Positions 4,672 to 58,045 of a stretch of DNA of 64,000 nucleotides are shown here, one piece after another. Source of the stretch: an uncultured Bdellovibrionales bacterium (GTDB lineage: Bacteria; Patescibacteriota; Minisyncoccia; Moranbacterales; UBA1568). The notes beneath the pieces are model-generated. The model saw nothing but the letters and a program-made list of their open reading frames with translations, made no database searches and was not told the origin of the DNA. The DNA is taken from contig CAZCNN010000001.1 in assembly GCA_964500505.1 (NCBI GenBank), positions 131,826 through 195,825 of the forward strand, in the 5' to 3' direction. The position numbers were made by a program, and so were the translations under genes. Within the stretch, counting starts at the first letter, position 1; each line of letters begins with the position of its first letter.

Positions 4672-5721
4672 TCACGCCTGGAGAGCCACGAGACCCGGGA
4701 GACTGTCTCCACTCAAGTACTCAAGCATCGCTCCACCACCAGACGACACAAAACTAATTTTGCCAATGGCATCCGCCTTTTCGAGTACTGCGAGCGACTC
4801 TCCGCCACCAATGACAACATAGGCTTTGCTTTCGAGGATAGCGTGGAGGATAGCGTCGGTCCCTATGTCATACGGCTTTTCTTCAAACTTACCCATCGGT
4901 CCATTCCAGATGATGGTCTTGGCGGTAGCAATAATCTGCGTATAGTACCCGATGGTTTGCGGTCCGATATCGAGACGGAGCGATGAATCAAAGTCATTCG
5001 GAAGGAGTACTCTCTCTGAGAATGCAATTTTCTGATCCAACGCTTCATTGGCGATTCTCCCACCCACCAAGACCGCATCATAGCTCTGTTCGAGCGCCTG
5101 AATGAGCGGGAGTTTGGTCTCGATCTTGGCACCACCGATGATAGCGATGGCCGGATGCTCGGGAGCGGTCCGCACCCGATCAAGCTCGGTCAACTCCTCC
5201 ACGAGCCGTAGTCCAGCGTAGGATGGCAGGAGCCTGGTCACGGCCTCGACCGAGGCATGAGCGCGGTGACAAACGCTAAACGCCTCATTGACGTAGTGAG
5301 TAAACGGAGTCACGAGTCGCTTGGAAAATTCTCCATCGTTCTTTTCTTCTTCGGCGTAAAAACGGACATTTTCGAGGAGAAGCACCTGCCCCGGGAGGAG
5401 TGCCTCCAGTGCTGTCACGACTGAATCCCCGACACAGTCAGGCACAAAGACGACTTCACGGTCGAGCGCTCTGGCCACAGCATCGGTAAGTTTGGCCACC
5501 GAGTACCCCTGGTCCGGCTTGCCATCCGGACGGCCAAAATGAGTGAGGAGAGCGATTTTGACATGGGCACTTTCAGCAATCCGGTCCACGGATTTCTTGA
5601 CGATATCTAGTCGGAAATGCTCTTCGATGTCACCGATATTACTCTGCTCGATGTTGAAATCAACTCGCATGAGGACACGTGCACCGGAAAAATCTACCCC
5701 CTCCATACTGCGCAGTTCCAT
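4672..5721 (-). CDS. pgk: Phosphoglycerate kinase
   Basis: VLMRVDFN motif near the N-terminus. Start placed at MELRSM (ATG at 5719-5721), not at the longer ORF start at 5847, which would overlap mraY. Confidence 0.9.
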   Translation of the reverse strand: MELRSMEGVDFSGARVLMRVDFNIEQSNIGDIEEHFRLDIVKKSVDRIAESAHVKIALLTHFGRPDGKPDQGYSVAKLTDAVARALDREVVFVPDCVGDSVVTALEALLPGQVLLLENVRFYAEEEKNDGEFSKRLVTPFTHYVNEAFSVCHRAHASVEAVTRLLPSYAGLRLVEELTELDRVRTAPEHPAIAIIGGAKIETKLPLIQALEQSYDAVLVGGRIANEALDQKIAFSERVLLPNDFDSSLRLDIGPQTIGYYTQIIATAKTIIWNGPMGKFEEKPYDIGTDAILHAILESKAYVVIGGGESLAVLEKADAIGKISFVSSGGGAMLEYLSGDSLPGLVALQA

Positions 5722-5750: not shown

Positions 5751-6887
5751 TTATTCGCCCATGCCGAGGATACCGATCATGACACCAATGAGCGCGGTCA
5801 GTGCCGTAAATATCCAGGCGCGCATAACAATCTTGGGCTCTGGCCATCCCTTGGCTTCAAAATGATGGTGGATGGGGGCAGCGAGAAATACTTTGCGACC
5901 AAAGAAACGCTTGGAAAGGAGCTGAATGGCGACACTGCCTGACTCGATAGAGTAGATAGCCACGATCACAAAGAGGACGAGAGCAGAATTCGTGAGCATC
6001 GCGACCACCCCGAGTGTCGTCCCGAGCGCAATGGCACCCGTATCGCCCATAAAGAATCGTGCCGGGTAGATGTTGAACCAGAGAAACGCGAGGAGTGCTC
6101 CAGCGAGCGCTGCACAGAACGCGGCGAGATCCATCTTGTTGTGTACAAAGGCAATGAGCGAAAAGGCACTGAAGGCGATGAGCAGTACTCCACCGTTTAA
6201 CCCATCAAGTCCGTCGGTTTCATTGGAGGAAATAGCTGCAAACAGAATAACAAAGATAAAAAGCGGGACATACCACCAGCCGATAGTGAAGTCACCGACA
6301 GCCGGGATATGAATCTCATCCCAACCAAGCTTGCTATAAAACCACCAGGCCCCAAATCCTGCGATAAGAAACAGCCACCAGAACCGAAAAGCGAAACGCA
6401 TCCCGCCACCCTTGTTGGTCCCTTTGCCACGGACGCTCATGTAGTCATCGAGGAGGCCCAGGAGGCCAGCCGTGACGAGGACAAAGAGTGGGAGCCACAC
6501 CTGAGAGCGCTTGAAGAAATCCAGCCGAGCGATGAAGTTCGTATTAGTCCACTCAGCGATAAACGGGAAAACATAGTGGGAGAGGAGTACGAGAAGGAGC
6601 ACCGTCACCCAGACGATGACTCCACCCATTGTCGGTGTCCCGGCTTTACCCGCATGGAGCTTGTTCACAAACGTGAGCTGCTCACCATTAACTGAGCGCT
6701 CTTTGATTTTGATGCCAAATTTGTACTTGTAGAGAAGATGCGTCCACAGCGGCGTCAATCCAAACGCGATAAGAAACGCCAAGAGACCCGTGGTCAATAC
6801 TTTGAGCACGTTTATGATCGTGGGAACACTCTGAATCTGCGCAATTTGTATAGCATCCATACCGAGTAATTTAATAACTATTTCCAA
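5751..6887 (-). CDS. mraY: Phospho-N-acetylmuramoyl-pentapeptide transferase MraY
   Basis: NETDGLDGL and PIHHHFE motifs; polytopic membrane protein. Confidence 0.9.
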   Translation of the reverse strand: MEIVIKLLGMDAIQIAQIQSVPTIINVLKVLTTGLLAFLIAFGLTPLWTHLLYKYKFGIKIKERSVNGEQLTFVNKLHAGKAGTPTMGGVIVWVTVLLLVLLSHYVFPFIAEWTNTNFIARLDFFKRSQVWLPLFVLVTAGLLGLLDDYMSVRGKGTNKGGGMRFAFRFWWLFLIAGFGAWWFYSKLGWDEIHIPAVGDFTIGWWYVPLFIFVILFAAISSNETDGLDGLNGGVLLIAFSAFSLIAFVHNKMDLAAFCAALAGALLAFLWFNIYPARFFMGDTGAIALGTTLGVVAMLTNSALVLFVIVAIYSIESGSVAIQLLSKRFFGRKVFLAAPIHHHFEAKGWPEPKIVMRAWIFTALTALIGVMIGILGMGE

Positions 6888-9339: not shown

Positions 9340-11301
9340 TTACCCAAAAAACCCAGCCACCTGAGTCACCAAGACCAGGGCTGCGAGAGCAATAGCGATA
9401 GCGATAGTAGCATAGGTCACGATCTTCTTGCCTGTTTCTGCCTTGCCTTCATCTCCTCCAGCCGTGAGATACATGAAGCCACCGATAACAAGCATGATGA
9501 TCGCGATGATGCCGACGATGGAGAGGAGGAAGCTTAAGACCTTAGAGGCTATCTCAGTAAAGGTTTGGGCTTCTTCGACGACTTGGGTTACTTCTATCCA
9601 GCCTAAAAGTTCTCCAATTTCTTTGAGGAAGGCAGGAGCAGCGATAGCGAGAGCGAGACCGACTACCGAAGCAGTGATAGCCACTTTGGCTTGAGAGACT
9701 CGTGATTCATTCCCGGCCGAGAGGATATACATGACCGCTCCTACGATAATCATGATGATAGAGAGGACGACGATGATACTTTGGAGCGTTGAGAGGACGG
9801 CAGTTAGCACGCTGTCTAGGGAGTTGTACTTGAGGGGGTTGAAGTAGCCTACTCCAGGAGAAGGGAGGGCGAGTGGGGCACAACAAGAGAGTCCGGTATC
9901 ACCACAGGTGCCAGGGGCAGGCTTGTATTTATCAGGTGCACACCCTCCTGAAACACAGGTATTGGGTGATTGGCAGGTGCCGTCGCCACCAGGGGAACTG
10001 GGTGATCCTGGTGACGGTGATCCAGGTGGGAGGGGTGGAGGCGGGGTATTGTTACCTTCTACCAAGACAGTAACTCCTCTTTTCGGACCACTGCCCTTTG
10101 ACTTGGTAGGGTCTTGACAAAACAGAATATATTCCGTACTCACCTGAGGAGAAACAACCAATGATCCTTTCTGCGTACCACTGGCTGTTGATGGACTGGC
10201 CAGTGGCTCTCCACTCATATTCCGATTATCCCACAGTGTACAACCAAAAAAAGCTTCGTGTTTAAACTCCCAAACAAGCGTAACAGATTGGCCGGGGTAG
10301 ATCTGTTGAGGTGGGGCTGGCGAGGCAAAGAATTTGACGATAGTAGTAAAGTATCCAACCTTCACCAAAGCTCCCTTGATCTGCGCATTCGGATGAGAGC
10401 CGGTCTCAGTAGCTACTCCACTACTATCGAGACACCGCAGATTATAATACCCGGTCTGGGTCGGCCATCCTTCAATACTCCCATTCACAGAGACATCTTG
10501 CCAGTCAGACCAATTTGGATCGTAATCCGCTTTCATCTGACAACTCACTGCTCCTGGTGCCTCCCACGAAATCTCCGTGGTGTTTCCCAGCTCTATCTCA
10601 TCAGGATTAGCATCTATATCGATGGGAATATTAGGAGAAGAAGGGGTGCCATTCGAATCCTGACATACACTGTTAAGCCCATCTGGGTTGTATACATAGC
10701 CACTTTTACACCGAAATTCACATTTTTGATTCGTATCCGTTTCAGAATAGGTCCATGCGACACTACCCGTTACATTATCCGTATCATTAGGATAAACTTC
10801 GACATTATCCCCATATGGCATTTGCCCGGTACAGGAGAAATTCCCTCCTCCTACTACCGTAATATTGACCACTGGAGAGGCTGACGTATAGGTAGATAAG
10901 TCGCTACTGACATATCCACAGCGAAATTCATAGATAGTGTTTTGGGTAGGGGTGTAAGAAAATACTTTTTTCGTCAACTCATCATGGAACTCAGGGGCTG
11001 AAGTAGCGCGGATTATCTCTGAATATCCGCTACTATCCGAGATAACACAGGCTAAAGGCTGATTAGAAAGGTTACTTGGCGTGCTGGAGACATGATATAT
11101 GATCCTAATAGTCTCCCCCTTATTAATGGTTGCCGTTGATGGCACCACCCCTTTCGTATCATCCCAACGATCCATGTAAATAACCCAGCCATCAGTCGCA
11201 AGAGATACGGGTGAAGTCAGTCCAAAACTCATGATGAGTCCCATGATGCCTCCGAGGAAGAGGGTTCGAAGATGGGTGTGGGTACATGGGGTGGGTGACA
11301 T
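9340..11301 (-). CDS. Large secreted/surface protein: signal peptide, roughly 400-aa extracellular region, Pro-rich linker, Cys-knot, two tandem TrbC/VirB2-like (T4SS-pilin-like) 2-TM modules (paralog A)
   Basis: Probable start MSPTPCTHTHLRTLFLGGIMGLIMSFGLTSPVSLA (ATG at 11299-11301). C-terminus has two repeated modules, IVGAVMYILSAGNESRVSQAKVAITASVVGLALAIAAP and VIGGFMYLTAGGDEGKAETGKKIVTYATIAIAIALAAL. Linker PPPPLPPGSPSPGSPSSPGG. Paralogous to the gene at 28455-30410. Confidence 0.7.
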   Translation of the reverse strand: MSPTPCTHTHLRTLFLGGIMGLIMSFGLTSPVSLATDGWVIYMDRWDDTKGVVPSTATINKGETIRIIYHVSSTPSNLSNQPLACVISDSSGYSEIIRATSAPEFHDELTKKVFSYTPTQNTIYEFRCGYVSSDLSTYTSASPVVNITVVGGGNFSCTGQMPYGDNVEVYPNDTDNVTGSVAWTYSETDTNQKCEFRCKSGYVYNPDGLNSVCQDSNGTPSSPNIPIDIDANPDEIELGNTTEISWEAPGAVSCQMKADYDPNWSDWQDVSVNGSIEGWPTQTGYYNLRCLDSSGVATETGSHPNAQIKGALVKVGYFTTIVKFFASPAPPQQIYPGQSVTLVWEFKHEAFFGCTLWDNRNMSGEPLASPSTASGTQKGSLVVSPQVSTEYILFCQDPTKSKGSGPKRGVTVLVEGNNTPPPPLPPGSPSPGSPSSPGGDGTCQSPNTCVSGGCAPDKYKPAPGTCGDTGLSCCAPLALPSPGVGYFNPLKYNSLDSVLTAVLSTLQSIIVVLSIIMIIVGAVMYILSAGNESRVSQAKVAITASVVGLALAIAAPAFLKEIGELLGWIEVTQVVEEAQTFTEIASKVLSFLLSIVGIIAIIMLVIGGFMYLTAGGDEGKAETGKKIVTYATIAIAIALAALVLVTQVAGFFG

Positions 11302-11326
11302 AGAAGAATGCTCCAAGTGAATTAAA

Positions 11327-12526
11327 TTATGATGTGTACGTATGTGTGGCCTCGGGATGAACCGTAGTATCATGAAGGAAGCAAGTTTCAAAGAGTGCGA
11401 CGAAGAGGACGATGGCCACGAGGAAGAAAATACTCTGCACTGGGAAGACAGCGAGCATCAGTGCTGAGAGGAGTGCGGCCAGGATATTAGCGACGGGCCG
11501 AGCGGTCCGGAAAAACGCAATGATATCCATGTCATCAGGACCAATCTGCTTGTAAAAGTACGAGTCACGAAGGATCTCGATACCCGCGATACCGACCCGG
11601 GTCATAAAGAGGGCCGTCCCCCACACCACGATGTCACCCGGCGCGAGAAATGGCAGGATAAAGGTGGCTGCGGCTGCGATGGCAATACTCCCGATGAGCA
11701 TCTCTTTCTCTCCGAAATAGCGATCAGCCAACCTCCCGAGTGGGTACTGGAGGAGGACAAACGGGAGGAGCATGACGGTAAAGATGATCCCAATCTCACT
11801 CCAGGCAAAACCACTCTCACGGAGATAGAGAGGAGTGTAGACAATCATCAGGGCATAAAAGAACTCAAGCGCGAGCGATACGTGGTAGATTCGGGACAGA
11901 TTCCGCGAAGCGAGCATCTTGCCGAACGTCGCCCGAAATCGAATTTTCTTCTGAATGGTCCGATTATCCAACCGAAAACCGACCAACGTGGCAATGAAAA
12001 TGATGGTATAGCCAATCACCAAGGCCAAAAAGATCCCGCTGTAATCATAGGATTCAAGCGTTTTCACCGAAAGAACTGGAGCAATGAGGAGCCCCGCGTT
12101 CATGATAGTGAGGTAAAGACCCCGGATACTTCCCGACACCTTATCCTCCGAAAAGCTCTCAAGGAGAATATCGAGTGTCACCCAGGTCACATTGGTCGCG
12201 ATAAGGAGAAGGAGTGCTGCCCCAAGCGAAATGTAGGCCGAGGTCGCCGACGCGAGAACCGCAGAAGCGCAGATCGAGAGACCGAGTGAGAGATAGAGGG
12301 CGCGAGCCCGTCCGATAATCCGAATCAGGGGCTGGAGATAGAAGAGACTTCCCAAGACGACGACGTAGGCAAGGAGGTAAAAAACACTAACATTGTCACT
12401 CCCTGATACCTCTGCAAAAAAAGTCGAAAGGATGTAAATAAAAAAAGCGTCGAGAAAACCGAACACGAACGATACGGCACTCACGAAGCGAACTTTTTTC
12501 TTGTTGAGATTTTCTTTGTGCGGCAT
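11327..12526 (-). CDS. MFS-type transporter
   Basis: About 12 predicted TM helices in a 6+6 layout over 399 aa. Confidence 0.65.
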   Translation of the reverse strand: MPHKENLNKKKVRFVSAVSFVFGFLDAFFIYILSTFFAEVSGSDNVSVFYLLAYVVVLGSLFYLQPLIRIIGRARALYLSLGLSICASAVLASATSAYISLGAALLLLIATNVTWVTLDILLESFSEDKVSGSIRGLYLTIMNAGLLIAPVLSVKTLESYDYSGIFLALVIGYTIIFIATLVGFRLDNRTIQKKIRFRATFGKMLASRNLSRIYHVSLALEFFYALMIVYTPLYLRESGFAWSEIGIIFTVMLLPFVLLQYPLGRLADRYFGEKEMLIGSIAIAAAATFILPFLAPGDIVVWGTALFMTRVGIAGIEILRDSYFYKQIGPDDMDIIAFFRTARPVANILAALLSALMLAVFPVQSIFFLVAIVLFVALFETCFLHDTTVHPEATHTYTS

Positions 12527-13441: not shown

Positions 13442-13455
13442 CGTTCGTCCCATCA

Positions 13456-13492
13456 AAAAACACCCCCGAGATTTTCGAAGGGTGTTTTTTGT
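13456..13492. terminator. Bidirectional Rho-independent terminator shared by rpmA (+) and the DUF2207 gene (-)
   Basis: AAAACACCC...GGGTGTTTT 9-bp stem flanked by an A-run (13455-13460) and a T-run (13485-13492). Confidence 0.6.
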
Positions 13493-16957: not shown

Positions 16958-17398
16958 CTATTCCGATTCTACCACAAGTTCAAACGAGGCTTTCACACCA
17001 TGACCAAAATCAGCCGAGAGAGCGAACTCTCCAGTCTCTTTGATGGCTTTGTCGAGGACGAGCACACTCTTGTCGATGGTGATCCCCATGGCCGAGAGAG
17101 CGAGGACGACTTCTTCGCGTCCGACCGAACCAAAGAGCTTGCCATTTTCTGCCTTACTCTTGATCACTACTTTCTTGCCAGAAAGTGCGTTGGCCAAAAC
17201 ACGGCTTTCTTCCGTCATTTTTGCCGACTCTGCCTGACGCTTGGCGACAAACCGCTCGGCCTGCTTGAGTGCTCCGGGCGTAGCCAAATCAGCCAACCCT
17301 TCGGGGAGGAGATAGTTGAAACCGTAGCCATTCTTCACTTCTTTGACTTCAAGCGCCTTCCCAAGGCCCCGAACGTCTTCCAAAAGGATTACTTTCAT
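16958..17398 (-). CDS. rplI: 50S ribosomal protein L9
   Basis: MKVILLEDVRGLGKALEVKEVKNGYGFNYLLPEGLA; start at ATG 17396-17398. Confidence 0.9.
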   Translation of the reverse strand: MKVILLEDVRGLGKALEVKEVKNGYGFNYLLPEGLADLATPGALKQAERFVAKRQAESAKMTEESRVLANALSGKKVVIKSKAENGKLFGSVGREEVVLALSAMGITIDKSVLVLDKAIKETGEFALSADFGHGVKASFELVVESE

Positions 17399-17457
17399 AC
17401 CAAAATCAGTCACCTATTAACTCAGACCAGGATAGCCTACTTCCGGCCTTTTGACAA

Positions 17458-17488
17458 GGTACCACACCAATCATATTGGTGTGGTACC
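17458..17488. repeat. Perfect palindrome GGTACCACACCAAT-CAT-ATTGGTGTGGTACC in the rplI upstream region, plus a half-site TTGGTGTGGTACC at 17508-17520
   Basis: 14-bp arms with a 3-nt centre; the same core recurs at 23845-23901. Confidence 0.6.
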
Positions 17489-17541
17489 AAGGTTCCTACT
17501 CAACAGTTTGGTGTGGTACCAGGGCATCAACGTCTAGCGAA

Positions 17542-18603
17542 CTAGAGAATGAGCATACTATCCCCAAAAGAGTAGAACGCATAGCGCTCCTGGATAGCGA
17601 GGTTATAAAGGTCCATAATGTCCCGCTTAGCCCCCTTATGCCCGAGAAAGGCATCGACTAAGAGCATGAGTGATGTCTCGGGGAGATGAAAGTTGGTCAT
17701 GAGAGCATCTACGGCTTGGAAATGATAGGGCGGGAAGATAAAGATGTCGGTCGGACCACTCATGGGGCGCACCTGGCCACCCTCCATGGCCGACTCCAGG
17801 GTCCTGGTCACCGTTGTCCCCACTGCTACCACTTTCTCCCCCCGCTCATGGGCTGTATTGATAGCCTCAGCCGTTTCCACGGGAATGTGAGCATACTCAC
17901 AATGAAGTCGCTTGGTCTCAAAGTTTTCCGGTCGGAGCGGCGCAAAGGTTCCGAGGCCGACATTAAGCGTCAAACGAGCTGTTTCAATGTTTTTCTGCTG
18001 TAAAGACTCAATGACTCGCTCGGTAAAGTGAAGTGACGCGGTCGGGGCGGCGACCGATGCCCCAGATTCTGCAAAGACCGTCTGATAGCGCTCCCTGAGC
18101 TCCGTCTCAGGTGTACCAGCCCCCTCGAGATAGTGTGGGAGTGGCGTCTCACCAAACTGATCAAGAAGAGCGAGGAGACCCCCTTCAGAGTGAAGTTTCA
18201 CCGAAAAAATATTCTCGGCCTGATCGACCACTTCACAGTATTCACCATTGGGAAAATACAATTTCTGACCGAGAGTGACTTTGCGATCCACGAGGACCGG
18301 GATACGCTCTTCATCCTCAATCTGATTGGCGAGTACAAACACCTCAATCTTACCCCCGGTCTCTTTCGTGAGCCACAGGCGCGCCGGAAGTACCCGGGTG
18401 TCGTTCAAGACCACCAGTGACTGGACCGGAAGATACTTGGCCAGGTTGGCAAAAGTACCCATCGACACAATGTCTGTCTTGGTGTCATACACAAACAACC
18501 GGGCGCTATCACGGGGTTCTAGACCTTTGGTCCTCACAAGTTCCGCCGGTAAATCATAGCGATACCTGGCCAAGTCGGAAAAATGCATCATCTCAATCAA
18601 CAA
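17542..18603 (-). CDS. queA: S-adenosylmethionine:tRNA ribosyltransferase-isomerase
   Basis: TPLPHYL, GTTVTRTLES, HLPETSLMLLV and FYSFGDSMLI motifs. Confidence 0.9.
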   Translation of the reverse strand: MLIEMMHFSDLARYRYDLPAELVRTKGLEPRDSARLFVYDTKTDIVSMGTFANLAKYLPVQSLVVLNDTRVLPARLWLTKETGGKIEVFVLANQIEDEERIPVLVDRKVTLGQKLYFPNGEYCEVVDQAENIFSVKLHSEGGLLALLDQFGETPLPHYLEGAGTPETELRERYQTVFAESGASVAAPTASLHFTERVIESLQQKNIETARLTLNVGLGTFAPLRPENFETKRLHCEYAHIPVETAEAINTAHERGEKVVAVGTTVTRTLESAMEGGQVRPMSGPTDIFIFPPYHFQAVDALMTNFHLPETSLMLLVDAFLGHKGAKRDIMDLYNLAIQERYAFYSFGDSMLIL

Positions 18604-20815: not shown

Positions 20816-21913
20816 TCAAGATTTTGTTTCGGTGATATAGGTGGTACTGAGGCCCTGTTCAGCCTGATGGCGCTCGAGCGCGAGATCGATCAGCCGGGTG
20901 AGGAGATCGGTATACGAGAGACCACTCGCTTCCCAGAGCTTGGGATACATGCTGATAGCGGTAAAGCCCGGGAGAGTATTGATCTCATTTACCAGTATCT
21001 CACCATTTTCGCGCAAGAAAAAGTCTACGCGCGCCAGTCCAGCACACTCAAGGACACGAAAGGCATGGCAAGCCACCTCCTGAAACATTGCGATCTGCTC
21101 CTGGGAAAGCTTGGCTGGAATCTCGAGACGAGCACCGGCCTCATCGAGATACTTGGCCTCATAGGTATAAAACTCTTTGGTGGGGATAATCTCACCCGGG
21201 ATGGAGGCCTCTGGATGGTCATTGCCGAGGACTGAGACCTCAATCTCGCGCCCGACGATACTCTCTTCGATGAGAACCTTGGTATCGTAGAGGAAGGCGT
21301 CCCTGAGGGCTCGTTCATACCCCTCATGGTTTTTTACTTTGTGGACCCCGACAGATGAACCGGCGTTGGCTGGTTTGACAAAGACGGGCGTGCCCAAGGT
21401 CTCTACCACCGACTCATATGAGGGAATAGTAGCCCGTCGAATGGTGAGGAAGCGTGCGACCGGGATACCAGCATCGCGGAGGAGTCGCTTCATCACGTCC
21501 TTATCCATCCCGATAGCTGAACCAAGGACCCCTGCCCCGACAAAGGGCACACCAGAGAGTCGGAGGAGCCCCTGGATCGTCCCATCCTCACCGGCACCAC
21601 CATGCAGAACCGGAAAGATGACATCCAGAGCCTGGCTCACACCACCTGCCACTCCGATCTGACCATGGCTCTCCGGGAGAAACATCACACTTTCATCACC
21701 CTCTTGTCGGGTGGTGACATCAGTGAGACCACTCTCGAGTGCTCGGGGGTCACGCTCCGGGAGGAACCACTGCCCAGCTCGGTCGATGGCGATAAGGACC
21801 GGTTGAAATCGGTCCCGATCCAGACTCTCCAGCACGTTTTTGGCTGACCAGAGAGACACTTCGTGCTCAGTTGACTTGCCACCACAGAGGATACCGACGC
21901 GGAGTTTTTTCAT
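20816..21913 (-). CDS. ddl: D-alanine--D-alanine ligase
   Basis: KLRVGILCGGKSTEHEVSL N-terminus and an ATP-grasp C-terminus. Start placed at MKKLRV (21913); the longer ORF start at 21946 lies within the TTACGTAA repeat array. Confidence 0.9.
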   Translation of the reverse strand: MKKLRVGILCGGKSTEHEVSLWSAKNVLESLDRDRFQPVLIAIDRAGQWFLPERDPRALESGLTDVTTRQEGDESVMFLPESHGQIGVAGGVSQALDVIFPVLHGGAGEDGTIQGLLRLSGVPFVGAGVLGSAIGMDKDVMKRLLRDAGIPVARFLTIRRATIPSYESVVETLGTPVFVKPANAGSSVGVHKVKNHEGYERALRDAFLYDTKVLIEESIVGREIEVSVLGNDHPEASIPGEIIPTKEFYTYEAKYLDEAGARLEIPAKLSQEQIAMFQEVACHAFRVLECAGLARVDFFLRENGEILVNEINTLPGFTAISMYPKLWEASGLSYTDLLTRLIDLALERHQAEQGLSTTYITETKS

Positions 21914-21947
21914 AACAGTTGTTACGTAACGAATTACGTAATTCATT
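21912..21947. promoter_or_regulatory. Three tandem 12-bp units each containing the palindrome TTACGTAA (gTTACGTAAcga / aTTACGTAAttc / aTTACGTAAttg): a candidate operator upstream of ddl
   Basis: TTACGTAA at 21912, 21924 and 21936, an exact 12-bp phase; located between the upstream Nudix gene stop and the ddl start. Confidence 0.55.
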
Positions 21948-22422
21948 ACGTAATTGAGAGTTCATTCACTTCCTCGACGTGATTCTCGAGGACCGAGTCT
22001 CCTTCACCAAAAAGAAACCGGGTCCGAAACTTCTTGCCGGCGAGAAACACTGGTATCCAGTGGATATCGTCTGGCCACATGGCATCATAGGGAATAGCAT
22101 CGGTAGTAAACCACTGGGGGCGCATCTCCTCAGTCTCACGAGGCTCACCTTCCCAAGCAGTGACTCGGTAGACATAAACCTCGAGGATATTGCCCCGGTC
22201 GCGGGCAAATTCAAACTCGTGCATCCCTACGGCCTCCATCTCGGTAATAGTCACACCGGATTCTTCCAGCGTTTCACGCTTGGCTCCCTCTTCGATACTT
22301 TCGCCCTCTTCAACTTTCCCACCGAACCCATTCCATCGACCAGCACCAAAACCACGCTTCTTCATCCCAAGGAGGATGCGACCGTCGCGGACAATGAGGC
22401 AAAGAGTAAGAATGGTTCTCAT
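21946..22422 (-). CDS. Nudix hydrolase
   Basis: Nudix box GGKVEEGESIEEGAKRETLEESGV. Confidence 0.8.
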   Translation of the reverse strand: MRTILTLCLIVRDGRILLGMKKRGFGAGRWNGFGGKVEEGESIEEGAKRETLEESGVTITEMEAVGMHEFEFARDRGNILEVYVYRVTAWEGEPRETEEMRPQWFTTDAIPYDAMWPDDIHWIPVFLAGKKFRTRFLFGEGDSVLENHVEEVNELSIT

Positions 22423-23795
22423 AATTTGGATTCAGCTACTACCGGCCGATACATGAGATTCTCAGCGACATAGGGATTGTCTTTCTTCCAGATGACGTTG
22501 TCAATGAAGTAATGATGGATATTGAGAAACACCGTAAAGAAAAAGAAATAAAGCGAGGTCCCAAAGACAGTGGTCGGGTAGCTGAGCCACGCGGGTGCTG
22601 TCCCCCGAGCAACCCAGAGGTCGAGCCAGATCGGGATCAGAGCAAAGAAGAGTGCTCCCAGGAAATAGGCGGAACCAAAAAACGTCACTATCCCCCATCG
22701 GCCTCTTGCCTGCCGATGATACAGGAGCGTGAGCATCCCGACGGAGAGACAGAGGAGTGCGCCCGTGACCCAGCCAATCGTCGTGAATCCTGAGGAGAGT
22801 GTCATGATATAACGATCAAGGGTAAGAGTCGCCGATTCCTTGAGTGACAGACCGATTAACACCGCCGGCAAGAGGAGGAGGAAAGCACCGCCCCAGAGGT
22901 TGTAGCGACTCGCTGTATTCCGCGTCACAGGAGTGTCTCTCTCTTCACGGATGGCCTGATTACGTCTCGCAGCAAAAACAAAGAGGAGATACTGGAGCGA
23001 ATGAAAGAGTGGGATGATATAGAAAAAGTACGGGTGAGAGAGGGCGGGAATGTACCAGAGGTAGATCGAAACGAGTGCGATCACTGCCGAGACTGGTGGG
23101 GTCACTCGCGAAATGATGTACTTCACGATAAACATGGCAAGAAGGAGGTTACTGGCGACAAAGAGCACCTGCTCCGACAGCTTGAGCCACAGAGGCGGGA
23201 GCGTCCAAGCAGTATAGGGCACCTGATAAAACATATTGTGTGCCCCAGAGATATTGGCCGAGAAGAATGACAAGGCCCACAGGAGGTAGAGTGGGAGGAG
23301 GATTGCGGTACGCTCGAGACGACTATAGTACACTTTTTTCGTGGCTGAGAGGACGACCACACAGCCAAATATCTGCTTGATATAATGCCAACCGACAAAA
23401 AAGAAGAGAGCATTCACGAGGTAGCCCATGAGCATGATACTCCCCTGCGACTTGGCGTAAAGAAAATACCCAATAAGGAGTACCGGGACAGCGAGCCCCG
23501 CCCACCACATCTTGATCATAAATCTCCGTCCCGTTCGTAGCGATCCAAACGATTGGCGAGCATCGCCATACATGAGGAGATAGGAGGCAGCAAAGTGCGG
23601 GAAATTGATGAGAAACGCGGCGTAGTAGAGCGCGATGGACCAGGTAAAGATATCGGCACCTTTACTCACCGCCACTTGGAGTATGATATAGGCGATGATA
23701 GACACGCCTCCGACGAGCATGCTATCGAGAAAGGGTGAGACGAGTGACGTCTGACTCGGTGCAAACCAGCCCTGAACCATCCTTATTATGCGCAT
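22419..23795 (-). CDS. Polytopic integral membrane protein of unknown function (about 12 TM)
   Basis: Hydrophobic throughout; sits between two Nudix genes. Confidence 0.55.
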   Translation of the reverse strand: MRIIRMVQGWFAPSQTSLVSPFLDSMLVGGVSIIAYIILQVAVSKGADIFTWSIALYYAAFLINFPHFAASYLLMYGDARQSFGSLRTGRRFMIKMWWAGLAVPVLLIGYFLYAKSQGSIMLMGYLVNALFFFVGWHYIKQIFGCVVVLSATKKVYYSRLERTAILLPLYLLWALSFFSANISGAHNMFYQVPYTAWTLPPLWLKLSEQVLFVASNLLLAMFIVKYIISRVTPPVSAVIALVSIYLWYIPALSHPYFFYIIPLFHSLQYLLFVFAARRNQAIREERDTPVTRNTASRYNLWGGAFLLLLPAVLIGLSLKESATLTLDRYIMTLSSGFTTIGWVTGALLCLSVGMLTLLYHRQARGRWGIVTFFGSAYFLGALFFALIPIWLDLWVARGTAPAWLSYPTTVFGTSLYFFFFTVFLNIHHYFIDNVIWKKDNPYVAENLMYRPVVAESKL

Positions 23796-23844
23796 ACAAG
23801 CCTTGTTACATGACCCTATTGTATCACGAAACAGCCTGTACTAT

Positions 23845-23901
23845 ACCACCACACCAACATACCCCACACACATCTGCTTGCATAAATGTTGGTGTGGTGG
23901 T
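23845..23901. repeat. 16-bp perfect inverted repeat ACCACCACACCAACAT ... ATGTTGGTGTGGTGGT (25-nt spacer) upstream of the membrane-protein gene; same core as the 17458-17488 palindrome
   Basis: Arms at 23845-23860 and 23886-23901; a second hairpin GGTGTCAgccatTGACACC follows. Confidence 0.6.
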
Positions 23902-24153
23902 AAATTCGAGGTGCGAGGATTCGGGGATTGCAGGGGCTTCGGTGTCAGCCATTGACACCACAATAAAGCAACGCCTTTCTTTTTCCCTCTCCCCTCCTCG
24001 CTCCCTTCTACAGCGCGAAGCTGTACCGATGAGGCCCTATGAACCCATAGGGCCTCAAAAAATTTCTTAGACACTTATGATCCGGTTGACATCTCCATCG
24101 AGAATCTCTGGTTTCATACCGAAAATCGTGATCCTCTTAGGCCCAGTGATATT

Positions 24154-24609
24154 TTAAATTTTTGCACCTGCTTCTCGAATCATTTTCAAATGCTTACGAG
24201 TCATTGAATGAAGTGGTCGAGGAAGCTTATCAATAGGAAACCAGCCAATATCGTCCATCTTGTCTGGCTCACCTATCTTTGCTTTTTTCGGATCTACCTC
24301 AGCCGTAAACAAAACAGCAATCCAGTGTGTTCTCGTCTTACCATTCCATCTCAGTGCATTATTAACAGCCCAAAACTTGAGATTTTTTGGCGTCACACAA
24401 TACTCTTCCTGAATTTCTCGCTTGGCGGTCTCGAGGAATGTCTCTCCAAATTCCATCGATCCCGAACCCGGATCCCATCGCCCATGCTCATCGCGACAGT
24501 TTATACTTCGTTTGTGCATGAGCAAATTACCCTTGCCATCATGACAGTAAAATACACAAGTCACCCCGATGAAGTCTACGCCCTTCTTCAGATCAAAAGA
24601 TTGTTTCAT
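24154..24609 (-). CDS. Nudix hydrolase (second copy)
   Basis: Nudix box GSMEFGETFLETAKREIQEEYCV. Confidence 0.75.
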   Translation of the reverse strand: MKQSFDLKKGVDFIGVTCVFYCHDGKGNLLMHKRSINCRDEHGRWDPGSGSMEFGETFLETAKREIQEEYCVTPKNLKFWAVNNALRWNGKTRTHWIAVLFTAEVDPKKAKIGEPDKMDDIGWFPIDKLPRPLHSMTRKHLKMIREAGAKI

Positions 24610-28454: not shown

Positions 28455-30410
28455 TCACCCCCCAAAGAACTTCGCCACCTGAGAGATGATAACGAGAGCT
28501 GCAAGAGCCACCGTGATACCAATAAGGGAGTATTTGACGATAGATTTACCGGTATTGATCCGGTCTTCATCTCCAGTGGCCGTGAGGTACATGAGGCCTC
28601 CAATCACGAGCATGATAATCCCGATGATACCAATGACTGAGAGGAGGAAGTTCAGGATCCCTGTAAGAATCTCGGTGATACTCTTGGCACTGTCTGCTGG
28701 GCTACCATCAACCGCTCCCCAGCCTAAGATAGCGCCAATCTCTTTGAGGAATGACGGTGCAGCGAGAGCGAGAGCAAGGCCAATGAGAGCGGCGGTAATA
28801 ATGAGTTTGCCGGTAGAGAGCTTGGAGTCATTGCCTCCGGCCGTCATGTAAACTATGGAGCCAATCACAATCATGATAAGAGAGAGGATGACGATAATCG
28901 CTTGGAGGAAGCCTAAGAGAGAGGTAAGAATCTCATCGACGGTATTAAAGGCTAAGGGGTTACTAATGGGGATAGTGTAGAGGACGGCTTCAGAGCCAGT
29001 TCTCGCAAGGCAACAGACTCCCGTACCATCTTTGGTCCGACCGACCACTTGTTCGGTGGCGTCGTTACAGCTCGCTTTGGGGGTGCCTACATCACATTTG
29101 CTGTTGTCGGTGGGAGGATTGCCAGGAGCTGGTGAGCCTGGTGGCAGAGGAGGTGGAGTATCACCAGAACCAATTGTAACCTGGACAGTCTCTTTAGGAC
29201 CAAATCCATAAGCGCCGTCCTGCCGTTGACAAAAGAATATATAGGTTGTTGTTGCTTTTGGCGCTACAACCCGACTCCCAGTCTGGGGACTATTATCCTT
29301 CGCTACAAATAAAACAGCATTATTGCCAAGTTGTCCATCATTGCGTGTGTTCTCCTCCAACCTACAATTAGTGCCGTTTTTGATACTCCAGAAGAGAGTG
29401 GTCGTCTCCCCTACTGTTTGGAGAGATAAAGGCTCAGCATAAAAATCCAAAATTTGTGGATAAAAACCAACATTTACATAAGCAGAAAAGTGAGGGCCAT
29501 AATTACTCGTAATAGCCCCTACGCCCTTACTATCAACACACAGCATGTTATACGCCCCAGATGCAGTAGGCTGAGAGGTCATACTACCATTGACTGGGAC
29601 ATCGACCCAAGATGCGAGATTTGAATCTTGATCTGCCTTTATTTGACAACTCACTGCCCCCTGAGTTATCCAAGACAACTTGGTTGTTTCACCTGGTTCT
29701 ATGTATTGTGGATTGGTAGTAAGAGATATGTAGCTTACCTCGGAGACTGATGGAGGAGGACCAGAAGAAGCCTCTATGCAAGCAAAATTACCTAGTTGAT
29801 CCTGACCCGGGACATGATTGGGACCACAATGCCACTCACACTTACGAGCAGTATCCGCCACACTATATATCCAAGACGTATCGGCTAGGACATCGATACT
29901 ATCAGTAGGATATATCTCTATACCACTCGTTACTAGCCATGGTTCGAGTCCCGTACATTTGCCATTGGCGATGACATTAACCGTTACCTCGTCATACAAA
30001 AGGTTCTCTTCGGCAAGATACGCATACCCGCAACCAAGGCGATACGTGACCTGTCCAAGTGATGTTGGGATAAAAATACGTGGCTGAGTATGAATCGGAT
30101 GAAATTGATCCTGGATATCGGGTACCATCGAATCTGGATCAAAATACAGAGTCGCAGTTGCTACCTGTCGATAGCCATCACTGCTAGTAAAAACACATTG
30201 CTTTGGCTCGGTATCACGAGGGAACTGGTCAGCTTGGATGAATAACTCCACTTCTTCGCCAAGTCCAATTGTAGCCGGACTCTCTAAAACAAGATCAACA
30301 GACTCATTTGCTGCTTGCGCTGAAGTGATGAGACCGAGACTCATGGTAAAACCTAGGCCACTCACTAATAGCAAATTTCTAAAATACGCCTTGCATGAGA
30401 TAAATGGCAT
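28455..30410 (-). CDS. Large secreted/surface protein with C-terminal tandem TrbC/VirB2-like 2-TM modules (paralog B)
   Basis: Signal peptide MPFISCKAYFRNLLLVSGLGFTMSLGLITSAQA, shared domain (SCQIKADQDSNLASWVDVPVNGS, cf. SCQMKADYDPNWSDWQDVSVNGS in paralog A), linker TPPPLPPGSPAPGNPPT, Cys-knot, then IVIGSIVYMTAGGNDSKLSTGKLIITAALIGLALALAAP and VIGGLMYLTATGDEDRINTGKSIVKYSLIGITVALAAL. Confidence 0.7.
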   Translation of the reverse strand: MPFISCKAYFRNLLLVSGLGFTMSLGLITSAQAANESVDLVLESPATIGLGEEVELFIQADQFPRDTEPKQCVFTSSDGYRQVATATLYFDPDSMVPDIQDQFHPIHTQPRIFIPTSLGQVTYRLGCGYAYLAEENLLYDEVTVNVIANGKCTGLEPWLVTSGIEIYPTDSIDVLADTSWIYSVADTARKCEWHCGPNHVPGQDQLGNFACIEASSGPPPSVSEVSYISLTTNPQYIEPGETTKLSWITQGAVSCQIKADQDSNLASWVDVPVNGSMTSQPTASGAYNMLCVDSKGVGAITSNYGPHFSAYVNVGFYPQILDFYAEPLSLQTVGETTTLFWSIKNGTNCRLEENTRNDGQLGNNAVLFVAKDNSPQTGSRVVAPKATTTYIFFCQRQDGAYGFGPKETVQVTIGSGDTPPPLPPGSPAPGNPPTDNSKCDVGTPKASCNDATEQVVGRTKDGTGVCCLARTGSEAVLYTIPISNPLAFNTVDEILTSLLGFLQAIIVILSLIMIVIGSIVYMTAGGNDSKLSTGKLIITAALIGLALALAAPSFLKEIGAILGWGAVDGSPADSAKSITEILTGILNFLLSVIGIIGIIMLVIGGLMYLTATGDEDRINTGKSIVKYSLIGITVALAALVIISQVAKFFGG

Positions 30411-36793: not shown

Positions 36794-36998
36794 GAGAAAT
36801 CTCCTGCGCCGTAGCGCCTTGTTGTAAAAGCCTCAGATGAGGCGATGGAAAGAACGCTGCCAAATTGTATGCAAACAAAAAGGCAGTAGTGAAGGGGTAT
36901 CAAGAGCACATGCAGGATACCCCTTGGCTACTGCCTCGAAACTGCGGGTTTCGAAACAGCTGGAACCCGCATCGAGTGCGGGATGACGCAGAATTACG

Positions 36999-53322: not shown

Positions 53323-53375
53323 TCCTAGGAAGAAAGCAGTGGTGACGATAACGCCGCACCGCTCTCTTCCTAGGA
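53323..53375. repeat. 15-bp imperfect inverted repeat (TCCTAGGAAGAAAGC ... GCTCTCTTCCTAGGA) at the right edge of the high-GC island
   Basis: 14/15 matching arms with a 23-nt spacer, between the island lipoprotein start and the Wzz-like paralog stop. Confidence 0.5.
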
Positions 53376-54075: not shown

Positions 54076-54197
54076 AGGGTATATAGAGTATTTAACGACC
54101 TTATATATTACCAAAAAATACGAGAAATGTCAATAGCTAGCCGAGACAAAGGAAAAACCCCTCATTTGAGGGGTTTTTGGCGGTTCCAGCAAGAGAA

Positions 54198-58012: not shown

Positions 58013-58045
58013 AAAAAAAAGACCCTATTTCAGGGTCTTTTTTCT
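58013..58045. terminator. Bidirectional terminator (serS on minus; tRNA-Lys region on plus)
   Basis: A8-GACCCT-ATTTC-AGGGTC-T8. Confidence 0.65.

Follow-up and report, generated by a model that had tools for sequence, protein, structure and literature searches.

The window, the 64,000-nucleotide stretch of DNA analysed here, contains two look-alike palindromes, both of them intergenic, situated within a run of minus-strand genes and preceded by a stop codon (Table 1). The first (site 1) lies between queA and rplI, whose real start is the ATG at 17398, and the second (site 2) separates a NUDIX gene from the gene of a membrane protein. Perfect terminal inverted arms of 14-17 bp, of the kind seen in the terminal repeats of MITEs, are present in both, while the core-to-core gap differs (5 nt at site 1 versus 31 nt at site 2). 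The site 1 hairpin folds as DNA with -15.5 kcal/mol (z = -8.4) and that of site 2 with -19.3 kcal/mol (z = -6.1), the stem of the latter comprising 17 bp if the pair T23844/A23902 is counted and 16 bp otherwise. In addition to the intact units, a third half-site, TTGGTGTGGTACC, is found at about 17508-17520 within a decayed unit upstream of rplI, and a degenerate additional arm, ACCCCACACAC, lies within the 25-nt centre of site 2. A sequence-only reading of this DNA had described the perfect 14-bp arms and the extra half-site upstream of rplI, the longer version with its 25-nt centre at 23845-23901, and the position of both in the 5' regions of minus-strand genes without U-tracts; inspection of the sequence and a terminator scan bear out each of these points.

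Table 1. Features of the two palindrome-containing intergenic regions and their neighbouring genes (window coordinates).
Feature	Position	Strand	Description
Site 1 intact unit	17458..17488	.	Perfect 31-nt palindrome, 14-bp arms, 3-nt centre, core ACCACACCAA / TTGGTGTGGT
Site 1 arms GGTACCACACCAAT / ATTGGTGTGGTACC	17458-17471 + 17475-17488		From sequence
Site 1 upstream decayed unit	17489..17520	-	32 nt, GGTACCACACCAAACTGTTGAGTAGGAACCTT; right arm decayed
rplI promoter	17429..17457	-	TTGTCA (17457-17452), 17 nt, TATCCT (17434-17429); promoter scan
rplI (ribosomal protein L9)	16958..17398	-	Pfam Ribosomal_L9_N and L9_C, translation
queA	17542..18591	-	Pfam Queuosine_synth; upstream gene, stop precedes site 1
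Site 2 element (putative insertion)	23846..23904	.	59 nt, plus strand CCACCACACCAACAT-(25 nt)-ATGTTGGTGTGGTGGTAAA, 17-bp stem
Site 2 arms ACCACCACACCAACAT / ATGTTGGTGTGGTGGT	23845-23860 + 23886-23901		25 nt apart
Site 2 junction TGGTATAGT	23840..23848	-	Element end TGG and apparently pre-existing target TATAGT
Extended -10 TGATACAAT of membrane-protein gene	23818..23826	-	21 nt downstream of element; predicted promoter
Membrane-protein gene, 458 aa, multi-pass	22419..23795	-	Downstream of site 2
NUDIX gene	24154-24609	-	Upstream of site 2

The two palindromes are real and are copies of one recurring motif, as the sequence-only reading had proposed and as is illustrated, in addition to the exact arms, by the frequency of the shared string CCACACCAA, which occurs six times in the 64-kb window against 0.37 expected (none of 100 shuffles reaches six), with five of the six occurrences falling in sites 1 and 2. 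When a covariance model built from related copies was scanned over the 64 kb, these two sites were the sole matches (E = 1e-12 for site 1 and 4e-5 for site 2, with E = 0.26 for the third-ranked match), so that copy density within the window is low, at 2 per 64 kb. Contigs from three other samples match the window at every base of the whole intergenic region that holds site 2, and the element is intact in a fourth, shorter contig as well; site 1 is identical in another contig from one of those three samples. Sites 1 and 2 are therefore not an assembly artefact. Neither reaches the gathering score of any Rfam family, and the sub-threshold matches are to generic miRNA-hairpin models.

Other structured elements of the window lack the motif. 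Canonical bidirectional terminators, each composed of an A-tract, a G+C hairpin and a T-tract, lie at 13454-13491, 54153-54178 and 58015-58043, and further long inverted repeats at 36881-36936, 53323-53375 and 21922-21953; an 18-nt overlapping palindrome at the ddl/NUDIX gene junction is also among the inverted repeats. The remainder of the 358-nt intergenic region upstream of site 2 (23905-24153, minus strand) is itself strongly structured (z = -5.7), with a G-rich segment, GGGAGCGAGGAGGGGAGAGGG, pairing with a C-rich segment and enclosing two small hairpins, an arrangement that is similarly kept in the element-free orthologous locus L248. This region, which has no Rfam match, could be a leader or a small RNA.

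Beyond the window, ACCACACCAA-N(1-30)-TTGGTGTGGT was searched for in one genome per species, and the inverted core came up at no fewer than 118 loci. The motif recurs far outside the window, with at least 50 of the loci carrying Patescibacteria names (Saccharibacteria, Moranbacteria, Kaiserbacteria, Paceibacterota, Parcubacteria and Falkowbacteria) and several further listed loci having the same flanks under doubtful or unclassified labels. The genome DP16D_bin.9 has at least 17 exact copies in 16 loci among the matches listed, and several other genomes have two or three, so that the family, like REP elements associated with RAYT proteins, consists of multi-copy extragenic palindromes in the 20-40 nt range. 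Matches outside Patescibacteria resemble fortuitous A/T-flanked terminators or coincidences within coding sequence, half-sites within Patescibacteria loci are nearly always paired, and the repeat family appears to be confined to this group. The window itself is from a Patescibacteria genome: the closest named relatives of the window QueA belong to Moranbacteria MAGs, and the 349-aa form of QueA (P0001) is 100% identical. Several MAG records titled 'Bdellovibrionales' or 'Gammaproteobacteria' (L103, L057 (CAYWLN01), L051, L062 and L028/L078/L091) are nearly identical to the window or contain typical copies, and these titles are probably wrong.

Minimal copies are 25-31 nt long and form a perfect palindrome on the 10-bp core ACCACACCAA/TTGGTGTGGT; the stem sequence is variable at its base and at its tip, where pairing is retained. 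Among Patescibacteria copies the core-to-core gap ranges from 2 to 32 nt. Of about 20 copies in which it is 10 nt or longer, 17 have a spacer that adds 3 bp or more to the stem, unrelated inner sequences pairing over 3-10 bp and giving perfect stems of up to 24 bp. In a set of 22 distinct copies whose centre is 5 nt long, the four stem positions next to the core vary solely through compensatory Watson-Crick substitutions on both sides, with 0-1 unpaired cells and no G-U pairs; the resulting covariation score of 0.225 compares with 0.119 in shuffles (0/500 reach the observed value) and with at most 0.074 in slid controls. Such strict Watson-Crick palindromy points to a hairpin or cruciform, or to a copying process; a dimer that binds the duplex would need no complementary spacer. 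Within a genome, the shared repeat reaches well past the core, over about 60 nt in two copies of L038 and about 75 nt in subfamilies of DP16D, which indicates that copies derive from one another. That the copies of the window and those in coding regions belong to a single family rests on the shared 10-12-nt core together with the taxon restriction. The gap lengths fall into clusters of 2-6, 10-15, 20-24 and 31-32 nt, the intervals 7-9, 16-19 and 25-30 nt being unoccupied; the period of about 9 nt departs from the DNA helical repeat and corresponds to no obvious hairpin rule.

Whereas the window copies are intergenic, other members of the family are found in frame within conserved genes, as in Rickettsia palindromic elements (RPEs), and in three lineages they lie within conserved enzyme domains. 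Copies of DP16D_bin.9 lie in frame within alignments to the Pfam domains PseudoU_synth_2, Peptidase_M16_C, GATase_5, TP_methylase and Mur_ligase_C, as well as within a transketolase and a Wzy_C protein, and here the coding copies bring C/G-rich flanks of 25-40 codons. By comparison, MnmA of a Falkowbacteria MAG and RsmA/KsgA of a Saccharibacteria MAG have an in-frame copy of 27 nt without such flanks, which is translated as HHT..GVV. The Pfam alignments span the insertion in L013, L034, L036, L100, L101 and L065, and that of L088 breaks off there. As the arms are composed of A/C only and G/T only, they can encode no stop codon; of 19 short copies, 16 lack stops in every one of the six frames, where random loops would be expected to yield 75%. 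Selection for stop-free loops was considered and rejected, the property stemming from arm composition rather than from the loops.

Comparison with relatives indicates that the window copies are recent and that elements are gained and lost quickly. At site 2, the orthologous locus L247 is 90.5% identical at the nucleotide level to window 21609-23845, the alignment ends at the palindrome edge and 59 nt are missing; the element is likewise missing from L248, with the same junction (...CCTCGAA|TATAGCAC... in L247/L248 versus ...CCTCGAA[59 nt]TATAGTAC... in the window). The filled site, CCTCGAA[59 nt]TATAGT, set against the empty site, CCTCGAATATAGC, reveals zero target-site duplication, which distinguishes it from MITEs that duplicate their target, and the target is A/T-rich (GAA^TATAG). 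Neither the more distant orthologous locus L249 nor the locus of a membrane-protein orthologue at 50% identity contains the palindrome. On grounds of parsimony, the difference at site 2 is best read as an insertion in the window rather than a deletion in the relatives, but deletion is also conceivable because the empty site itself resembles a degenerate half-site, at 10/14 positions. The insertion also bears on gene annotation: P0121, a 484-aa database entry for the membrane protein, begins 26 codons further upstream, inside the palindrome centre (window 23796-23873), and this start was probably mis-called because of the insertion.

At site 1, the queA-rplI-pyrG order and the rplI promoter are shared by four relatives whose QueA is about 70% identical, and these lack the palindrome; TTGTCA-17/18-TAnnCT is retained upstream of rplI in all four (L123-L126), and the covariance model finds zero copies in about 94 kb of DNA from these relatives. 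The 92%-identical L103, on the other hand, has one 32-nt unit more than the window, with 2.6 copies at a period of 32 and the upstream units decayed, and because this array occupies the same place, the third half-site of the window is read as what is left of an older unit. The array at site 1 is specific to the lineage, the number of units differing between close relatives, and the order left arm, second left arm, right arm recurs in L091. Neither window site is kept at the orthologous promoter in close relatives. Compared with the elements, the promoters downstream of both are conserved and older, the extended -10 of the membrane-protein gene being kept as TGTTACAAT (TGnTACAAT) in the element-free L247 and L248.

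Recurrence, covariation that maintains the hairpin, presence and absence at both sites and in-frame coding copies in relatives are all directly observed, and we consider it probable, at roughly 0.6, that both palindromes belong to a mobile hairpin repeat of Patescibacteria that resembles REP elements, MITEs or RPEs. Mobilisation would proceed through a single-stranded hairpin intermediate recognised by a putative trans-acting enzyme, with insertion, free of duplication, at A/T-rich sites, as in IS200/IS605- and RAYT-type mobilisation. The window copies would have landed directly upstream of intact promoters, flush against the -35 hexamer of rplI at site 1 and 21 nt before the extended -10 at site 2, a placement in which each is probably either neutral or mildly modulatory. 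Where element and target meet at site 2, an additional box resembling an extended -10 is created, with predicted promoter activity, and read-through from the upstream gene would produce an RNA hairpin of 14-17 bp that could slow 3' exonucleases or RNA polymerase. A more far-reaching proposal is that the single 10-bp core marks a mobile hairpin element across the Patescibacteria superphylum, which at 25-31 nt would rank with the smallest such elements known, colonising promoters and, in frame, conserved enzymes; this would imply a conserved, hairpin-specific insertion machinery or a conserved protein that binds the hairpin or the duplex, and the element ends may have been co-opted as a portable extended -10 for leaderless genes. 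We regard this proposal as tentative.

The collected loci, which are genome fragments only, yielded no transposase or other mobilising gene, and tblastn of approximate IS200, IS608 and RAYT queries against these loci gave chance-level matches only; the weak matches in L066 and L121 correspond to ORFs of other genes. An NYN nuclease was rejected as the mobiliser, as it adjoins copies in L038 only. In that locus two identical units of about 60 nt (5335-5360 and 6110-6135) flank the NYN-domain gene in a cassette-like arrangement, and the first overlaps the end of the upstream gene, which is putatively UvrB-like, judging from its tail, and whose TGA stop codon is supplied by the palindrome centre. 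Direct repeats of 6-7 nt possibly flank some copies (L038, DP16D), although not consistently.

The RPEs offer a close parallel, as they too are short dispersed palindromes of small, host-dependent genomes, lie both between genes and in frame within conserved genes, have no known transposase and occur patchily among relatives. RPEs are imperfect, about 100-150 bp in length and restricted to Rickettsia and its relatives, whereas the family described here has a perfect minimal unit of 25-31 nt and a 10-bp core common to several Patescibacteria classes, and its window copies are intergenic. REP elements and BIMEs, together with the RAYT protein (an IS200/IS605-like Y1 HUH enzyme), resemble it in being multi-copy palindromes of 20-40 nt that lie outside genes, for the most part on their downstream side, and in forming hairpins, inserting without target duplication and building local arrays. 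They differ in being imperfect and species-specific, in having a 5' tetranucleotide of the GTAG type and in not normally entering coding regions, and no GTAG-like tetranucleotide outside the stem is conserved among the family copies. Correia elements and other MITEs share the small size, the non-autonomous character, the inverted ends and the preference for TA-rich sites beside genes, and their junctions make -10-like boxes that can alter promoters or terminators, in keeping with the TGG|TATAnT junctions found here. Correia elements, which are confined to Neisseria, measure about 100-155 bp, have 26-bp terminal repeats around a non-palindromic interior and duplicate TA. In contrast, the one clean pair of empty and filled sites available here (site 2) shows no duplication. 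Relative to these analogues, what differs is the very small perfect unit combined with a core common to several classes. A core of 10-16 nt conserved across classes is, however, unusual for REP elements or MITEs and could reflect a conserved binding protein instead. Full-text searches of the available literature found no published description of the motif, or of REP, MITE or RPE elements in Patescibacteria.

Among the other explanations, one holds that the palindromes act as RNA hairpins at the end of the upstream transcript, either as a factor-dependent terminator or insulator devoid of a U-tract or as a REP-like stabiliser of the 3' end placed before the next promoter. The stability of the stems (the site 1 RNA fold and the 17-bp stem of site 2) and the compensatory changes that maintain their pairing are consistent with such a role, as is the genomic context, assigned from crude ORF calls: most copies are flanked by co-directional gene pairs, seven lie between convergent genes as against one that is clearly between divergent genes (rnr and rpsP), another comes after a tRNA gene, three copies have an RNase R gene next to them and nearly all intergenic copies are bordered by the 3' end of at least one gene. 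However, the window stems are followed by CUUGUCAAAAGG and AUAGUACAGGCU, neither of which is a U-tract, the terminator scan is negative at both sites and canonical terminators are used elsewhere in the genome. Moreover, at least nine other loci have a canonical hairpin and T-tract terminator directly before the element, which is thus not the ordinary terminator of those organisms, and although the window sites follow stop codons, related copies are found between divergent genes and inside genes in addition to after such terminators. The complete lack of G-U pairs at the four core-adjacent stem positions would be unusual under selection at the RNA level. Wobble asymmetry is uninformative on such selection, each database scan having fixed one or both arms. 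Given also that a hairpin function leaves the shared 10-nt sequence and the coding-region copies unexplained, this explanation is unlikely, and the suggestion in the sequence-only reading of unusually long terminator stems fails as a primary identity, in view of the negative scan, the canonical terminators elsewhere and the divergent-gene copy. A secondary effect as an RNA hairpin or through protein binding may nevertheless accompany a mobile repeat.

The sequence-only reading had also raised a shared operator for one dimeric factor; here a conserved dimeric or multimeric Patescibacteria protein would bind the inverted ACCACACCAA half-sites on the duplex, shortly before the promoters, and co-regulate rplI and the membrane-protein gene. 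Conservation across classes, strict symmetry and the lack of G-U pairs would all suit a protein-binding site, and so would the similar promoter distance of the two window copies, whose proximal arms end at about -37 and -39 relative to the predicted transcription start, as would be expected of a regulatory site too. The spacing of 32-34 nt between extra half-sites in the window, L103 and L091, corresponding to about three helical turns, and the clustering of the gap lengths point in the same direction. Against this, the variable gap differs from the fixed spacing of an operator, its period is about 9 nt and not 10.5, and the complementarity of the spacers is not required by a duplex-binding dimer; in addition, some copies sit where an operator would not be expected, with convergent genes on either side, behind a tRNA gene or in frame within enzymes. 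The neighbouring genes, which encode L9, S16, HisRS, another class II aminoacyl-tRNA synthetase, RecG, a PriA-like protein, Pif1, RNase R, cyclophilin, aspartokinase and a TraG-like protein, have no functional theme in common that would define a regulon, no regulator gene was seen to adjoin any examined copy, and the site is missing at the orthologous promoters of close relatives. Co-regulation by a common factor is accordingly poorly supported, and we judge it very improbable. The CIRCE element bound by HrcA is similar in being an inverted repeat near promoters that is conserved over a large taxon, but its fixed 9-nt spacer, coherent chaperone regulon and retention at orthologous promoters have no counterpart here, and the consensus and spacing of the NrdR, LexA and CIRCE boxes do not fit the palindrome.

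It is also highly doubtful that the palindrome is a domesticated portable promoter or supercoiling module, in which an outward-facing extended -10 (TGG followed by TATAnT) and an AT-centred palindrome extruding as a cruciform would tune promoters through supercoiling in regulator-poor genomes. This explanation draws on a TATA class of copies from other Patescibacteria, in which the arm continues as TTGGTGTGGTGGTATA(C/G/A)T and the resulting junction, TGGTATA(C/G/A)T, is followed by an ATG after 6-8 nt in 10 independent loci, the junction being as at site 2; the geometry suggests an extended -10 that would drive a leaderless mRNA. One copy between divergent genes has TATA on both sides, single-arm TATACT versions occur in metagenome contigs, some with the same ATG spacing, and centres are AT-rich with perfect arms. 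Yet the conserved promoters of the window lie downstream of the elements and pre-date them, convergent and coding copies need no promoter, and TATA may be just a preferred A/T-rich insertion target, given that the empty site already reads TATAG. The single-arm sites (L193, L195, L199, L202, L218, L227 and L236) read ...TTGGTGTGGTGGTATACT and have no left arm; in some the ATG comes 7-8 nt after TATACT, L195 has TTTACC 16 nt upstream, and 'CT' after TATA is over-represented among the matches.

The remaining candidates were rejected: five half-sites in 64 kb, almost always paired, are far too sparse for a DNA uptake sequence, a Chi-like site (the arm contains TGGTGG) disagrees with copies that are intergenic, paired and rare, the integron attC R-box consensus is unmatched and the flanking genes are housekeeping genes, with some copies inside genes, a TIGR-Tas stem-loop array is absent, copies being solitary or in arrays of 2-3 units with centres mostly of 3-5 nt, and a phage origin is disfavoured by only four matches to the motif in the viral collection.

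If the two palindromes are indeed mobile hairpin repeats, the very small genomes of Patescibacteria would nevertheless carry a miniature mobile palindrome family not described before. Such a family would explain odd insertions in conserved proteins as well as mis-called gene starts, exemplified by the membrane-protein ORF that extends into the palindrome, and would point to a DNA-hairpin insertion activity of possible use as a genetic tool in bacteria that are hard to manipulate. The element may also serve as a marker of recent genome change in uncultured lineages, and the TGGTATAnT boxes made at junctions would allow testing whether a mobile element can rebuild promoters. By the same token, recurring promoter-proximal palindromes need not be regulons.

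Several of the collected loci show features of their own. In L033 (7200-7330) and L039 (2900-3010), the palindrome follows the RNase R stop codon and the last 10-11 codons of the gene (AEKELDFVP[V/A]-stop) are present on both sides of it, with synonymous differences only, a last residue that co-varies (V/V versus A/A) and a second copy that lies in a different frame in the two genomes. Matches with a 30-nt gap in L021 (7698-7823), L089 (1147-1281) and L110 (5263-5397), in MAGs labelled Dojkabacteria and Saccharibacteria, are LOOT RNA (RF03000), in which one helix is exactly ACCACACCAA/UUGGUGUGGU; the Rfam consensus of LOOT RNA has a different sequence for that helix, and LOOT RNA has no match in the window. 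The 16-nt arm, TATACCACCACACCAA, coincides with one synonymous version of the universally conserved Y-T-T-T-P-K codons of S12 (rpsL), and about 20 of 120 matches to this arm are rpsL on the opposite strand (L135, L139, L153, L163, L172 and about 15 other metagenome loci). Elsewhere in the window, 9340-11391 and 28455-30410 encode proteins of 683 and 651 aa, respectively, each ending in a T4SS_pilin domain (PF18895), and a third variant of such a protein, 90% identical, is found in L254.
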